A stretch of 64,000 nt of DNA. Origin: Antechinus flavipes (lineage: Eukaryota). Location: the NCBI RefSeq assembly GCF_016432865.1, contig NC_067401.1, positions 264,616,001 to 264,680,000 of the forward strand, in the 5' to 3' direction. A program made the position numbers and the translations under genes. The notes beneath the pieces were generated by a model that was not told where the DNA came from, searched no databases, and saw only the letters and a program-made list of their open reading frames with translations. This document shows positions 2,762 through 45,718 of the stretch, one piece after another; the stretch's first letter is position 1, and each line of letters opens with the position of its first letter.

Positions 2762-3084
2762 AATGACCAAGAACAAGATATAATTAAGGCTGCTAGGAAG
2801 ACATTTTATCCAATATACTGATGTTCAAGTCAGAAAATGGCCTTTGTTAGAGCAGATCTGCCACTGTGAGAATGCAAACCAATTTTTTATTCTCTGCAGT
2901 ACCACATTTTCCCTAAATATTTGTACTTTACCTGAGGCTTTTGAGAGACATATTATCTTTACTTCTGAAAATTACCCATTAAGATTTGTGTTTATTTGAT
3001 TAAATCCTGACATCTCAATCCTTGTCCCCTAATTCCCATTTCCTGAAAAGCCAGGATATAGATACAAGCACTAGATGATACATT
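2762..3084 (+). repeat. Local direct repeat, copy 2 (~323 bp)
   Basis: Second copy of 1309-1628, about 1.45 kb downstream. Confidence 0.95.
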
Positions 3085-6000
3085 ATGTAGTTGAATTCCA
3101 ATAAAAAACTAGGGAAACTTTTGAATATAGGGGGAATAAAGAGTGTAGATGTTGAAGAACATAGGATCAAAGACTTAACTGGGGAACAAATACATTATGG
3201 ATTTTGTAAAAGAAATCCAGATTTCATTTGTCCATGGTTACTTATAAATTAAATCACAAACATTACTCAAAAGTAGTATTACATCTTATCTGGTTTTATA
3301 TCTTACCTAAGGGAAGTTATTCATAAAAATCTGCAACTATTGCTCAGCCATAGAAAGAGAACCCTAAGTACCATTAAGATTGGTATGCCACTGCACTTTT
3401 GGTACTTAAACAGAAAAGCCATATATCAGGGGCAGTATTAACCAATTACACATGGAGAACATTATGGAGCAGATAATATTAATAATAATAAAATTAATAA
3501 TAATATTAATAAGATATAACCTTTTAAGTTGAGAACTTTGAAAAATTTCACAATTTCTGAAATCATATGCCACCAAATCTTCTTGTACCTATTTCTTGGT
3601 ACAGTTTATTATCCATCTCAAAAATCTATCAAATTATTTATATGTAAATATATACATGTGGATATTTGTGTGTGCTTCTGTAATGTGTGTATACATACAT
3701 GCATACTTCTATGAACAACAGGTCATTGGTTTATATTATGCAATGATCCCCAAATACTTTCTGAGATTCATTAGTTTGGTTTTACAAAATTTTCTGGATC
3801 TGGGTATGATGGCTTATCTAAATGATAGTCTCATATATTCATGGACAATAAACATCTGAATTTAGAGGCCTCTGCTGAAAACAAAATTAAAGACTAAATT
3901 TAGGTTTTTTTTTTCCCCTATTCCCAATTGAATACAATTAAACTTCTTTTTCTAACTTTCAAGATCCTTCACAATCTGATTGTTCAGACTCATCGCCATA
4001 TGCATTATATTTTAACTAGATTGAACTATCTGGACTTTGATTAGGTCTTGACAAGTGGAATGTTCTTCCTTTTTGATATAATTAGAAACTTACCATCTAC
4101 TCCCTTTTCTGATGTCTTAGTGTCATCCACTCTTGATGGGAAAAATAGTTATATATTTGGATAAGCAAAATTGCATAATTCTCTTTTCCTTGGATGGATC
4201 TTTCAGTGAGCTGAAGTTCAATCTTCTATCTCTATTTATATGGTCATAGAAGAATGTTTATGGCTGAAATTCCTGTTCTCTCTTTTCCTACTGAATTCTT
4301 ACCATCATTTAAACCTCAGTTTTAATATGGAAAAAATATATGTATGAGGGATAGAATATGTGTGTATGTATGTATGTGTATATACATATATACATAAATG
4401 TGTGTGTATTTTGATAAATGTTTCAGATGTATAATAAAATGGATCAAGAATTGAGAGAAAAAAGTTGATTGAATCTAATTTGGGATTCTTGCGAATTCTT
4501 GTAAAGAACTCAACTTAAATTTCTCTATCTGTAATACTAGTATTTCTTCAGTGATGCTTTAAAGATATGAATAAATGACACTAAAAAAATAGAATGAATC
4601 AAAATTAAAAAGTAATCCCAAGGATAATGGGAAAATCCATGCTACATGGAAGTAGGCAGTAACATATTAATAAGGATAACAAATACAATATATTATGAAA
4701 ACATGTACTATCAGCACAGTACAAATGGTACATAAATAATCTTAGCTTCTAATATAGTAGGTGAATCTTCATTAGAAGATTCAAAGGGACAGAAATTAGC
4801 TAGGAATGACTGAGTTTGAATCTTTCTTGGGCATTGCTATGTGATGCTGTGATTACCTATGTACCATTTGGTTCAGTTTTCTCAGTAAAATCAGAATATA
4901 GTACCTAACTTCCCAGTCTTCTTTGATGAGCTAACATTTGTAAACCACATAAAAATAGACTATTATTATTATTAATTATTATTATATAACATATAATTGT
5001 TTACCACTTAATCACTATAACTGTTCATCTGTTATTCCTTGTTCTAACTGGCCCACATCCTTTCTGATCTCATATTTTGGTAATATGCTTTAGCCTACTG
5101 TTGATGTTGATCCTAAAAAAGCATGGAGTTGCATATGTGTATATATATTTCCATTAAAAACCATGATAGGAAACTGACTGACATTAATACAGGTGATGAA
5201 AGTTGTTTGTATATGATCAGGGCTTAATGAATTCATTTCTTTTATTTTTTTATTTTTTTCATTTATAAAATGACTAGAAATTCTATTGCACTTTTGTACC
5301 TAACTGTTGTTTTATCTCCAGTTTCATGTAGAATTGCATTTGAATAATCTGGCATAATTGGATCCCAACTAATTTCAAGTTTTCTGCTGGTTCTTTTTCC
5401 CCTTTGCTGCTTTTTGCTATTTTGTGAGAAACTGTTGTTCAAAACCTGCTATCATCTTTCTCTAAATATTTTGCAGAAGTACAATGCTGGTTTAGAGTAT
5501 ATTTCACTGTGGCAATTAAGATTGATTTTAAAACAATTCAAAAACTTAATTCATTGAAAGATATCTCTGTTAAGTATTAGTCGGGTTAAAAAATTATGGA
5601 AAAGTTTGAATTAAACAACTATAAAAATATCATCCAAATATTTAATCATTCACTTATTTATGCACTCTAAAGAGTAAGTTTTGGGATTTCAAAGAATGGA
5701 AACACCTTTGTCCTCACTTCAAACTAAGAAAAGAATTTAAAGAAAGCATACAGAATTCAATACAAAAACATACACACACATGGAATATTGTAGATAGATA
5801 TATAGTTTCTGTTTAAATATATGTACATGTATGTACATATATGATATATATATTCATTTAAATGTATTCATGTATGTATGAATAGTTGGGTGTTTCTATG
5901 TCTTACCACTACTTTTGTATTAATGCCTTAGTATAGTCCTATGGAATGAAGTCAGACATATATATCTCTACTCAAAAAATGGGCTATCCACATTATATTT

Positions 6001-19883: not shown

Positions 19884-20295
19884 TGTAATGGGCTGAGGTG
19901 TGAGTTGATGCACTGAGGTCTCAAGCACGTGAGGCTAAATAGTAATTGGACCATACTCTATTAATATATATGCTTGAAGAAAGAATGGCCCCCGCCCACT
20001 CTTTGTGCAAGTCCTGATGTGTTGTATAGGCAATGATATTTTTGGTGGGTGGAGGCAGGGGAGTGGAGAGGGAAGCGGAAGGAGAGATTGCTGGCTGGCG
20101 TCTTGACACAGCTGCTCACATTGCTATCGGGAAGGCCCTTCATCTCCAATCCCCCTCTGCTAGCTGGCTTCCTGTCGAAGCTGCCCATATTGCTATCGCA
20201 ATCCTTTTTCACCTCTTCACTTCAATAAAGACTGAAGATTTTTCCCTTAACCTGAATTCCTGACTCCAGCTGATTTTAAATATGCAGTCATCACA
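19884..20295 (+). mobile_element. ERV solo LTR, 412 bp
   Basis: TGTAATG...CATCACA termini; flanks ACTTTT/ACTTTA (6-bp TSD, one mismatch); AATAAA at 20224-20229; internal 19-bp repeat at 20111-20129 and 20180-20198; GC- and CpG-richer than surroundings. Confidence 0.92.
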
Positions 20296-39700: not shown

Positions 39701-40428
39701 TCTGTTGTGCTCATACTCTTCTTTTCCTCTTATAGTTCATTTTAGAGGCAATTAGGTACCACAAGAGTTTATTGACTGTGGGAGGGAAATAGACTGATTC
39801 TTTAGGAAAATCAATTGGCAGCTGTGTGAAGGCTAAATTGGAGAGGTCAGAGGGTTAAATCAGAGAGACCAATCTGAAAGCAGCTACAATAGTCCAGTTC
39901 AGAGGTGATGAGAGCCTGAACAAAGTTCTATAGATAAAGAAAAATGTGAAGGTGGTTAGATACTATATAAAGATGGCTATGACAAAACTCAAAAATGAAT
40001 GGATATGTTCAAGTGACTGGTTAAATTCAAAGAAATATCATGTTTAGAATGGCCCTTTGGCACTGGAGTTACAAAGACTAAGTGCTGAGTTGAGTGAAGT
40101 TATTGGTGTCCTGAGGCTATGTATATACAAAGAAATGGAAGTGATACATTAAACCAACAAACCATAAGTTTCATTTCTCAAAAGGATGATATAATTCAAT
40201 TCAATGTAATTCAAGGTGAATAATTCAATTTAATTCAACTCAATATTCATTTATTAATTGCCTAGTATGTGCAAAGCCTTGAGATAGATTCTGGGGATAT
40301 AAAGGCATAAATGAAAGCCCTGACTTGTAAGTCTTCAAAATTATTTCTAAGATGCTATTTCATCAGAGAACTTCTCTCACAACCTGAAGCCTGTTTGCTC
40401 TAAAACATCAAGCTGTTCCTATATTAGT

Positions 40429-41969: not shown

Positions 41970-42428
41970 AAAATATGTTCACTTTGATTGATTATATTTT
42001 TGTTTCAAGGGAATATCATTGTAATACAAAAATAAAAAAGTGTCAATGAATGACAAACATTACACAGGAAAGAAGAAAGTTCAAAAGGAGACTTAAAGAA
42101 AAGTATTGATGTTGCTACTATCTTGTTAAAAGCCTATCTATACTTTAAAAATGAAATTGTGCATGTTAGATTCACAGTTTTGTGCAAAACTCTCTTTTCG
42201 TCCTTTTAAATAAATGTTTTTTTTTATTTATTTGTGACCATATATGTATACACACATACATTTAAAATGAAAGTTAACTAAAGCATCGACCAAGTTCCTG
42301 CAAGAAAGTAGACTTATATTATTTATTGTATATGAGCAATGCTTACTCTCAGGTCCACAAATTTAAAAATAAAAATATTTTGATAGCTTTATTTTTTAAG
42401 GCTTCCTTTGCAATCCTATATGTTTTAT

Positions 42429-42612
42429 TGTAATGGGCTGAGGCTTGAGTTGATGCACTGAGGTCCCAAGCACATGAGGCTAAATAGTAATTGGACCATA
42501 CTCTATTAATAGATAAGCTTGGAGAGAGAATGGCCCCCACCCACTCTTTGTGCAAGTCCTGATGTGTTATAGGAAATGATGATTTTGGTGGGTGGAGGCA
42601 GGGGAGTGGAAA
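42429..42612 (+). repeat. Left arm: first 184 bp of the ERV LTR (U3 side)
   Basis: Collinear with 19884-~20070; differs from the right arm by 4 substitutions and a 2-bp indel. Confidence 0.95.
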
Positions 42613-42687
42613 TGGTAGCAGAGGATGGTTTCGATCCATCGACCTCTGGGTTATGGGCCCAGCACGCTTCCGCTGCGCTACTATGCT
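42613..42687 (-). tRNA. tRNA-iMet-CAT: Initiator tRNA-Met (CAT) full-length copy with 3' CCA, probably a retrocopy/pseudogene
   Basis: Reverse complement AGCATAGTAGCGCAGCGGAAGCGTGCTGGGCCCATAACCCAGAGGTCGATGGATCGAAACCATCCTCTGCTACCA (75 nt) equals vertebrate tRNAiMet except G5>T and G9>A; anticodon at 42653-42655. Confidence 0.97.
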
Positions 42688-42710
42688 ATTACATTATATG
42701 GAAGGGGAGG

Positions 42711-42785
42711 AGATGGCTCAGTGGATAGAGCACTAGCCTTGAAGTCAAGAGGACCTGAGTTCAAATCCAGCCTCAGACACTTAAC
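42711..42785 (+). mobile_element. tRNA-derived head of a WSINE1/MAR1-type CORE-SINE, 3'-truncated, followed by A-rich aaacagaaaaa
   Basis: A-box TGGCTCAGTGG 42714-42724, B-box GAGTTCAAATCC 42757-42768, ...gcctcagacacttaac; no CORE follows. Confidence 0.9.
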
Positions 42786-42796
42786 AAACAGAAAAA

Positions 42797-43037
42797 GTGA
42801 GCTGAGCCAACCGTGGCAATGGCAATCCCAAAAGTCTCTCCTCCCCTTCCTTTTCCACTCCCCTGCCTCCACCCACCAAAATCGTCATTTCCTATACAAC
42901 ACATCAGGACTTGCACAAAGAGTGGGTGGGGGCCATTCTCTCTCCAAGCATATATATTAATAGACTATGGTCCAATTACTATTTAGCCTCATGTGCTTGG
43001 GACCTCAGTGCATCAACTCAAGCCTCAGCCCATTACA
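42797..43037 (-). repeat. Right arm: first ~241 bp of the same LTR, inverted
   Basis: Reverse complement begins TGTAATGGGCTGAGGCTTGAG and extends to ...GCTCAGCTCAC; 12 differences from the solo LTR over the first ~184 bp, more diverged beyond. Confidence 0.95.
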
Positions 43038-44921
43038 TTTTATCATATTTGTTTATATTATTCTGAGTTTACATTATTTAACTAATTATCAATTATCCTC
43101 ACTAGAGTTCCAAAGGAATCTAAGACAGAAATAAAAAGGTTAAGAATACTTGTTGTTTACTTGGACCAGAGTACAACCACAATTTAAGGGCTCTCCTTCT
43201 CAGTCTAATGTGTTATATAATTCTTCCTATTTGTGTAGTATTAATATTTTTTTTTTGCAAAAGAACATAATCACTTGGAATATTTTAGTTTGCCTATTAA
43301 AAGTCAAAGATTTACTTTTCCTTTGTAACTTTTGTGAGAAGCTTTATTGTACAGATTCTAACATTCTACCCTGTACCCTGAAATAAGACACTTACCAAGG
43401 TCACTGAATGTATTCCAAAACTAAGTTGTTCAAAGACCAACCATCAATTCATAAATATGTTCCATAAGTTCAAACTGTACTTTAGTGAATCAACTTCCTA
43501 CTAACTAATTAATTAAGAATTAAACATTTTTTTTCTATACTGTATAAACAAGAAACAGGCTCCAAATTATATCACTCCAAAAATTTACCAGATCTTACCC
43601 TCCAGAGATATGTAATCTTATGTTTATTATGGAGAAATTAATACTCATTACAAGCACAGGAGAAACTTCCTGTTGACCTTGATTTACCCTTCAACAACCT
43701 CCCAACCCTCCCCTGGGAACCACATTCGATTCAGATTTTACTTCGTCATTGTTCTTATTACATCATCTCCCATTTAGAGAATATTTGCTTCTAAATGTTA
43801 GGCAACCAGCAGGGGACAATCATCTTTGTAGCTTCTGAGAACAGCCCCTTTAATCCAGGAAAATGTCCACCAATTTTTTTTTTTAATTGTTCTCTAGTAA
43901 CCTACAATTTTTATTCCTTGGAGGTTGTGGGATTCCATGGTTTGCAACCATTTGATAAAATTTTAACATTATTGGGTGAGACATGATCCCTGATTTTTTT
44001 TTTCCCATTTTTAGCATGGACTCCCAGTGGCAGAGGGATTCCTTTTACAGTCTCTAGATTCTCCTTTTTTGGCAATTGATAAAAAAAAAAAAAGGGATGA
44101 TTGCAAACAAGTCCAAGAATCCTTTAGATTCTTTTAAACATGACTCAGATTCATACAAAAGAATTTGACTAATTATCAACAATTTAAAAATGACTATATA
44201 ATATGAAATACTCAGATAATGTCTACGTGAACTTGAGTTGACAGATTATAGAATTATCTTTTAGTATAAGCATCTTTGATACATTTTAAAGATGGATAAT
44301 AACAGTCCATAATTGACTGAAAATAGAAATGGACCTAAGAGCCTCCTGAAATTAAAAGGTACTTGAAATGACCCATTTTCCCCTGAAACAAAACCAAGCA
44401 TTTTGGGGGTTGTTTTTGTTTTTCAATCGAAAAATACTTGGCATACTTAGCAATAATGATTTATAACTTCAACTGATAATAAAACATTAACACAGGAGTA
44501 TAAAAAGTCATTTTCATGCAGAAGTATAATTCATTATAGATCATTAGGTAAAATATTTCAAAGACTATAGCATAGATATTCAAATATGGACATGGGGTAA
44601 TGTCATTTTTCCTTTATAAATCATAGATCATCTTCTGAAATTTATAATAATGGGGAAGAATGGTTCTAGGTAAGAAATAACAGCTTAGAATCACTGTCAT
44701 TTAAGGCATTTCTTAAAGTATAATTTCCTAGTTTTAATGTCAGGGGGATGATGTGTTCTTAATCTAATTATAATGTCATATATCAGGTTGCTGTCAGGAG
44801 AGAATGACAAATGCCAACATTATTTGAAATAAAAAAAGTATCTGAAATTCAGGAAGCTATACTTTTATTCATTTATTTATTTTTAAATCATCATGTAAGT
44901 GTGTTTGAATAAAAACTTTCT

Positions 44922-45368: not shown

Positions 45369-45718
45369 TACTATAGGGTTAGCTATATAGCTATAGTTCA
45401 AGTGTAAGCTGACTTCAGGCTGAGAGTTCTTTGATGAGATAGAGTCTTTGGACATGATTTTAAATACATAACTCAAAAGTAAAGTCAGGAGAGAAAAAGA
45501 TTTAATTTATGTCTTTATATCCTCAGAATCTATCACTGGGTTTTGTATAACATGGCAAATAATAAATATTGAGTTGAATTAAATTGAATTATTCACTATG
45601 AATTATATTATAATAAATAGAATTATATAATCTTTTTGGGAATTGAAACTTTCATTATGTTGTCAATATATCACTTCCCCCCCCTCCTCTCTCTCTATAT
45701 ATGTATGTATGTATGTAA

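Follow-up and report, generated by a model that had tools for sequence, protein, structure and literature searches.

Inverted LTR ends around a SINE core: a mobilised element family in Antechinus flavipes

What kind of element carries the 5′ terminus of the same endogenous retrovirus (ERV) LTR at both of its ends, in inverted orientation, and encloses a tRNA and the head of a SINE between them? The question is raised by a 609 bp insert in a stretch of 64,000 nucleotides from Antechinus flavipes (hereafter the window). A first-pass annotation took this insert for a single aberrant cDNA, in which the SINE, like the tRNA, was a captured passenger. We report here that the insert is real and is a member of a mobilised family, and we consider how such a family might replicate. 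Throughout, 'U3' serves simply as a label for the LTR 5′ terminus.

The insert and its family

The insert spans 42429–43037, with TG at its start and CA at its end. Its features, together with its flanking duplications and a related LTR elsewhere in the window, are:

42423–42428, plus strand: left target-site duplication, TTTTAT
42429–42612, plus strand: left arm, LTR positions 1–186 with a 2-nt deletion, commonest U3 haplotype; probably helper-derived
42613–42687, minus strand: complete mature tRNAi-Met with CCA, in primer-binding-site (PBS) geometry relative to the arm; apparently a private passenger
42688–42699, plus strand: 12-nt filler, its first 8 nt resembling the LTR 3′ end plus TT (comparison by eye)
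42700–42713, plus strand: LTR positions 188–201; putative 5′ end of the element's RNA, which would also form the 5′ strand of a 14-bp terminal stem
42714–42786, plus strand: tRNA-derived SINE head, A box at 42714–42724 and B box at 42757–42768; subfamily without CORE and tail
42787–42850, plus strand: deletion scar and antisense LTR 243 to 188, inherited together with the SINE head
42837–42850, plus strand: terminal stem, 3′ strand
42851–42854, plus strand: T4, putative Pol III terminator immediately past the stem, identical with antisense LTR 184–187
42851–43037, minus strand: right arm, LTR positions 1–187, U3 haplotype unlike that of the left arm; probably helper-derived
43038–43043, plus strand: right target-site duplication, TTTTAT
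19884–20295, plus strand: solo LTR of the helper family, older; a relative only, outside the element

Much of this had been described correctly at first pass, including the TTTTAT duplication on both sides, the filler, the 14-nt LTR piece and the SINE head that starts at 42714. The whole antisense tRNAiMet with CCA is likewise confirmed, as both ARAGORN and Rfam place a tRNA-Met(CAT) at 42613–42687 on the minus strand. The ends do derive from the LTR family of 19884–20295, and from its 5′ terminus: the left arm aligns to this solo LTR with 181 matches and 16 mismatches, the right arm with 188 and 15, and the two arms are mutually complementary at 95%. Other details had to be amended. The inverted right arm is present but measures 243 nt, not 241; the supposed A-rich 11 nt is a scar where the SINE lost its 3′ half, and in part resembles the LTR; and the 6-bp duplication attributed to the solo LTR matches at five of six bases (ACTTTT/ACTTTA). 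This solo LTR is approximately 79–81% identical to younger full LTR copies. Open reading frames of at least 110 aa in the window, read by eye, gave no sign of a host or viral gene close to the insert. Of the sequencing runs compared, two contain 0.86 and 0.84 of the words sampled and may be the source material.

A search of the 3.19-Gb genome, in which 40 out of 4,569 candidates were scored, recovered many loci with a SINE head and an inverted arm at 96–99% identity. The LTR/SINE junction has 531 genome-wide matches with up to 2 mismatches, the SINE/antisense-LTR junction of the window's subfamily has 57 (30 of them exact), and the stem plus A box has 230 exact matches; each control returned 0. 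LTR starts number 9,269 across the genome, and LTR-end/PBS junctions 423. Because the search patterns required the A box and a few upstream bases, they under-represent short junctions and loss of the A box. The first-pass annotation had proposed looking for shared junctions with different duplications as a sign of mobilisation, and dozens of such loci were found. A one-off aberrant cDNA is therefore rejected, as the SINE junctions are shared by many loci.

Loci L001–L155, a set that contains repeats of one place as well as unrelated controls, hold 61 distinct duplication-bounded elements, of which 52 have two U3 ends (U3...U3) and 9 have U3/U5 ends. The target duplications of the 52 are perfect 6-bp repeats in 46 cases, all mutually different, with one mismatch in 5 and of 5 bp in 1. 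The nine U3/U5 elements comprise 5 ordinary SINE-free proviruses and 4 with a SINE module. A further 20 loci added 13 U3...U3 elements, bringing the distinct total to 65, each with its own target duplication. Among 40 LTR/SINE-junction loci, taken in list order from the 531 (35 one-mismatch and 5 exact), 24 were U3...U3, 2 were U3/U5 and 14 had no assignable ends. Seventeen stem plus A-box loci, taken in list order from the 230 after removal of four places already in earlier lists, gave 10 U3...U3 elements and 7 without assignable ends. In all, 21 of the 57 sampled loci had no duplication-flanked end pair in the DNA examined. These rates suggest a few hundred elements in the genome, an estimate drawn from the exact and one-mismatch classes, in which tandem modules are counted twice.

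Selection of loci without regard to the SINE gave a similar structure: three inverted LTR pairs chosen blind to it all had perfect duplications (3/3), and two of the three contained the SINE. Two U3...U3 elements (L077 and L162) lack a SINE, which indicates that the ERV produces U3...U3 molecules unaided. Empty sites were sought by searching left and right flanks separately and finding where they abut in paralogous copies. For six copies inserted in other repeats, the flanks overlap by exactly 6 nt at the empty paralogous site; a seventh, in a simple repeat, gave an ambiguous overlap. No paralogous empty site was found for the window copy, whose right flank is essentially unique.

Structures of this kind might instead be local events or artefacts, arising by template switching at solo LTRs, gene conversion between arms or misassembly of palindromes. 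Arms within a copy are often identical (no difference in 19 of 45 elements), as such processes would have it. However, the SINE junctions repeat at hundreds of unlinked sites, and the two arms are of different lengths with unique cargo between them, so that we consider a local origin very improbable. Misassembly of the window insert is unlikely, because its junctions recur at dozens of loci, each with different target duplications. Nor is the window copy a collapsed palindrome, since its arms differ at 6 sites.

RNA templates, inherited core and arms

The spliced exons of a host mRNA in one copy demonstrate that the element has been copied through an RNA intermediate. In this copy (L021), 681 nt map as seven blocks, at 98–100% identity, over 26 kb of C2. 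The blocks are exons, seven in number and spliced together, from the mRNA of a papain-family protease, presumably cathepsin B, with the C1 propeptide encoded. Another copy (L133) contains a piece with AATAAA and a poly(A) end that maps 2.6 kb downstream of these exons. As this piece lies further down the same strand, a single host mRNA has apparently been captured twice.

Traces of tRNA are also found. In one copy (L080) the PBS continues through most of tRNA-Lys, with T replacing A58, which we take to be the m1A site; another (L123) carries a sense tRNA-Lys with its CCA end. Among the one-mismatch genome matches to tRNA-Lys that were listed, 30 of 42 differ at A58. ARAGORN found no tRNA gene over 60 loci, and Rfam found two tRNA-Lys pieces over 20 loci. 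The CCA of the window's tRNAi-Met is absent from all 9 genomic tRNAi copies compared with it, and its sequence differs from genomic tRNAi copies at G5 and G9. We assume that G9 is a modified base in tRNAi, and this single change is only a hint of a modified-base trace. No tRNAi junction was seen at a second locus among the 40 of 152 candidates scored. Judged by sequence, the window's tRNAi-Met is a private passenger. Both PBS and polypurine tract (PPT) are absent from the window copy and from canonical 525-bp copies; where some copies do contain them, it is only as cargo.

The LTR that supplies the ends is about 410–440 nt long, is followed by a Lys-type PBS and has a purine tract upstream. 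An older, broken provirus (L084), with LTRs 80–82% identical to the young LTR, encodes Gag_p10, Gag_p24, RVP, RVT_1, RNase_H, Integrase_Zn and rve. Betaretrovirus-type gag-pro-pol and a Lys-type PBS behind the LTR family identify the helper as a class II ERV. Four of the original proposals are thus supported: that both att ends are of U3 type, that the ERV source is class II (betaretrovirus-like), that the 6-bp duplications are those of an integrase, and that the element arose from cDNA. That these elements form a mobilised family, copied through RNA and inserted by an ERV integrase, is in its entirety very nearly certain. A plausible helper is MEBrv 3, an env-less class II clade amplified in Dasyuridae (PMC11334065). 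The likeness is one of kind, the helper here having a betaretrovirus-type gag-pro-pol, a Lys-type PBS and an LTR of this length and abundance; the words 'inverted' and 'non-autonomous' are absent from that paper's main text (PMC11334065).

The SINE module, previously regarded as a passenger of the same kind as the tRNA, is instead the core that hundreds of family members have inherited. SINE-oriented copies form nested subfamilies, beginning with a full SINE and A-rich tail and followed by two successive deletions; the window copy belongs to the last of these. In the younger subfamilies the SINE 3′ half has gone and both boxes have been retained. Both motifs, judged against what we take to be the A and B box consensus, are present in the modules, the A box being itself demanded by the search pattern and the B box occurring in 57 of 61. 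Across 158 nt, the window module is 100% identical to that of a locus on another chromosome (L005), while the U3 arms of the two copies differ. As the copies compare, the inherited unit is the 14 nt of LTR, the SINE head with its A and B boxes, the antisense LTR piece and T4. RNA of window positions 42700–42854 is predicted to fold, at -59.9 kcal/mol (z -4.9), into a structure closed by a terminal stem of 14 bp. T4 directly follows antisense LTR 201–188 in 23 of the 38 copies that were scored; a further 12 went unscored. A run of four T is a weak Pol III terminator. Many young copies have no T4.

The SINE of the element is probably WSINE1. Ordinary SINE copies in the flanks share head and body with it and start 12 nt before the A box, compared with 14 nt for the module. 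Among SINE heads from 25 copies, 136 of 300 pairs are identical; the mean difference of 3.3 per 75 nt is inflated by unaligned indels, and no age is taken from it.

The arms behave differently from the core. Over U3 positions 1–180, the two arms of a copy differ at a median of 1 site, compared with 3–4 between copies. At 7 polymorphic columns in 45 elements, arm agreement is 0.971 against 0.736 under permutation (maximum 0.819 in 5,000), and in the 22 elements of the window's subfamily it is 0.981 against 0.804. At positions 184–187 the arms agree in 37 of 37 cases, where state frequencies predict about 0.45, and a single core is found with several U3 haplotypes. Since the arms of a copy track each other and not the module subfamily, the U3 arms appear to be re-templated from the helper ERV in each cycle. 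Eight copies with a complete left LTR have 0, 0, 0, 0, 2, 1, 4 and 3 arm differences over positions 1–187, and their arms first diverge at 193–210. An insertion at 195 is common to 7 right arms that span four U3 haplotypes. From these divergence points and this insertion, the linkage of the right arm passes from helper to core between 187 and about 195, beside T4; an exception is L030, in which a helper-type variant extends to position 192 of the right arm. The window's own arms are discordant, unlike those of most copies, so different LTR templates probably supplied its two ends.

These findings bear on the resemblance to a MITE, which had been noted at first pass and which holds for the outline and for nothing beyond shape. 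A MITE-like DNA element, in which a transposase or integrase copies the unit by way of genomic hairpins, would share the long inverted ends, small size and duplications of fixed length. Spliced mRNA, poly(A), CCA and the A58 changes nevertheless require RNA templates, and core and arms are not inherited together. Such an origin is already contradicted, and we regard it as scarcely credible.

The joints around the module are less uniform than its interior. In 28 of 100 modules the core is contiguous with U3, and the other 72 are preceded by something else: a full LTR with partial PBS, ERV internal sequence, another module, a tRNA or an mRNA. In these 72 the retained LTR starts at 182–200 and never before, a range whose lower part is inflated by the permitted purine variants and which under-represents very short junctions. 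In tandem arrays each module starts afresh at the identical motif, and some inserts mix subfamilies. So many non-canonical modules might suggest that there is no self-renewing element at all, and that a SINE-antisense-LTR RNA comes from one or a few master loci, its copies being dead-end by-products of a sloppy reverse transcriptase, as LTR-mediated retrocopies are. Inverted copies without a SINE do occur, and read-through of the primer tRNA by the ERV is frequent, both of which would suit such a source. Against this, the nested subfamilies, with the full SINE and with each of the two successive deletions, have each reached many loci; tandem modules combine subfamilies within one insert; over a quarter of modules are fully rebuilt; and successive masters would be required anyway. 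We consider dead-end copying decidedly unlikely.

A proposed cycle and its main rival

The reading that we favour, and hold to be probable, is that of a non-autonomous retroelement family in which an inherited Pol III SINE RNA of about 150–290 nt has both of its ends rebuilt from a helper ERV. The part of this reading in which the element RNA is a short Pol III transcript we hold with rather more confidence. Pol III transcription from the SINE A and B boxes would start at about LTR position 188 and stop at T4, past the antisense LTR. The SINE RNA, its 3′ part antisense to the helper LTR, would then enter particles of the betaretrovirus-like ERV. There, it may act as a substitute for tRNA and prime minus-strand synthesis on helper RNA near position 188, or a nascent plus strand may switch to it as a template. 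Priming and copy-choice are about equally probable, and either would yield a strand that begins at a U3 att end and copies the SINE RNA as far as that RNA's 5′ terminus. The 3′ end of this strand, complementary to LTR 188–201, could join a second LTR template of plus polarity. An exact join would restore the canonical element, and a sloppy one would bring in strong-stop DNA, ERV internal sequence, a second module, a tRNA or an mRNA. Finally, integrase would insert the molecule by both U3 ends, giving the 6-bp duplication.

The window copy would be the outcome of sloppy joining, with the second strand passing from U3 position 186 into mature tRNAi-Met in PBS geometry. Two routes to this, mis-priming by tRNAi or a switch to the 3′ end of that tRNA, are indistinguishable here.

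The RNA 5′ end near 188 could also be the LTR's own Pol II start, and this is the main rival. Here, Pol II RNA would arise from the LTR promoter of the left arm, R would begin at about 188, the 14 nt of LTR would be a short R that serves ordinary first-strand transfer, and the SINE would be a promoterless hitch-hiker. LTR positions 1–187 are conserved and those past about 203 hypervariable, as R can be; hypervariable R has its analogy in IAP. Three loci (L130, L150 and L154) carry ERV internal sequence followed by PPT-U3(1–201)-SINE, an arrangement that fits transfer onto helper RNA. However, a Pol II start leaves unexplained both the switch of the right arm from core- to helper-linked at 187/193–195, beside T4, and the deletion of the SINE 3′ half with the boxes spared. 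Further, a TATA-like word at 142–148 would direct Pol II to start at about 174, and no junction keeps LTR sequence from before 182. We consider a Pol II origin unlikely.

Known elements and wider significance

By definition, SINEs travel as passengers of non-LTR elements, and a non-autonomous LTR element is a miniature that has direct LTRs, a PBS and a PPT; the present family fits neither. Among the latter, TRIMp3 elements (Cassandra, Helenus and Ajax) come close, in that they are short and non-coding, have a Pol III promoter derived from a small RNA (putative in our element) and are thought to rely for movement in trans on an LTR element and that element's integrase (PMC10886601). They possess, however, two direct LTRs within which the promoter lies, a PBS and a PPT, and 4–5 bp duplications (PMC10886601), whereas our element has inverted U3 ends, a SINE between the arms, 6-bp duplications and a canonical form without PBS or PPT. 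The terms 'inverted', 'ERV', 'mammal' and 'marsupial' are all absent from the text of that paper (PMC10886601). Assignment to TRIM or TRIMp3 is rejected on two counts, as 52 of 61 duplication-bounded elements are inverted U3...U3 rather than direct, and the window and canonical copies have no internal PBS and PPT. A trait that the family does share with TRIMs is that of being non-coding with an integrase-type duplication of fixed length (46/52 perfect 6-bp).

In LTR-mediated retroposition, too, host RNAs are captured by template switching inside the particles of LTR elements, with microhomology or short fillers at the joints, and the resulting retrocopies lie between a 5′ and a 3′ LTR (PMC5131818). 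In our family, by contrast, cargo is incidental and a self-similar family is bounded by two 5′ LTR ends. The words 'inverted', 'SINE' and 'tRNA' do not occur in that text (PMC5131818).

The CORE-SINE WSINE1, propagated by LINE-1 (PMC3403934), resembles the older subfamily in its tRNA-derived head, short body and A-rich tail (PMC3403934, PMC4408412). In Dasyuridae it is described as inactive for about 30 My, and the devil as without identical copies (PMC4408412); in our element, by contrast, identical head pairs are frequent and the ends are LTR att sites. As for an L1-mobilised SINE, the head is tRNA-derived and homologous to a dispersed SINE. That class is rejected on its ends, which are TG...CA in place of a terminal A-tail with variable duplication, the tail being internal or deleted. 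MITEs are alike in outline, with inverted ends, small size and a fixed duplication, and differ from our element in its RNA intermediate and LTR-derived ends. A MITE is rejected because the inverted ends follow each other and are not inherited with the interior, and because spliced mRNA, poly(A) and CCA cargo are at odds with a DNA-only intermediate. The family is outside the tested definitions of TRIM, L1-type SINE and MITE. Its layout is undescribed in the literature searched, which covered few subscription journals, and it may have a name in Repbase or Dfam.

We tentatively propose, as possible rather than probable, that this is a SINE past its LINE-1 phase and now a parasite of an ERV, in which a Pol III RNA serves as an antisense substitute primer, inverted att ends are rebuilt every cycle and host tRNA and mRNA are carried along, and that it represents an undescribed class. 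If this is true, a SINE has swapped its partner, from LINE-1 to an ERV, which would bear on a published account in which the youngest dasyurid SINE ceased to move about 30 My ago (PMC4408412). It would also mean that a small antisense RNA is able to enter retroviral reverse transcription, and that U3–U3 molecules can integrate cleanly hundreds of times in a germ line. The copies are a record of strong-stop products, primer read-through and particle cargo. Repeat annotation would render such elements as 'LTR + SINE + LTR', and similar families may consequently hide in other genomes. In the host, the long inverted arms may give rise to double-stranded RNA or unstable DNA.

ERV loci, primer tRNA and elements lacking the SINE

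Two elements of the Antechinus flavipes genome, 1887 bp (locus L077) and 616 bp (L162) long, run from U3 end to U3 end without a SINE, and each is enclosed by a perfect 6-bp duplication; 318 nt of the interior of the L077 element are unexplained. Short proviruses, 1.4-4.9 kb in length, occupy L079, L083, L091, L092 and L095; their LTRs are in direct orientation and their target duplications are 6 bp, and those at L091 and L092 contain three LTRs each. At L089 and L090, paired junctions of LTR end and Lys-type primer-binding site (PBS) stand face to face, 0.7-1.3 kb apart. Elements at L121 and L155 lie within or adjoin ERV internal sequence and show no clean duplication.

Among 80 places listed in the genome, many are tRNA-Lys 3′ halves with changes at position A58, and several of these coincide with LTR-end/PBS matches, so the ERV behind this LTR family often retains a PBS extended into the primer tRNA. 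Gene-like matches to tRNAi-Met and tRNA-Lys cluster on chromosome C4 (40.84-41.12 Mb) and in a second region on C1 (662.45-662.58 Mb).

Compound, tandem and local repeats

A single 6-bp duplication encloses the whole of a 4.4-kb element (L150:828-5211), in which an inverted stretch of ERV internal sequence links a back-to-back pair of SINE modules. Modules, or whole elements plus flank, are tandemly repeated in units of about 0.7-1.9 kb at L153:4255-6436, L113, L152 and L154. The window itself holds a local duplication of about 327 bp (1309-1632 and 2762-3088; 92% identity, spacing 1.45 kb) and an AT-rich inverted pair of 58 nt (40194-40251 and 45561-45618; 86% complementary), one copy on each side of the 609-bp element.

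Captured host mRNA

Two loci carry parts of a papain-family protease mRNA (cathepsin-B-like), apparently the same one:

L021:1836-2516, spliced 5′ part
L133:2040-2458, poly(A)-ended 3′ part
C2:177,040,596-177,069,996, genomic source of both pieces

The two captures are independent and apparently drew on one host mRNA, and this double capture may indicate the cell type in which the family moves.
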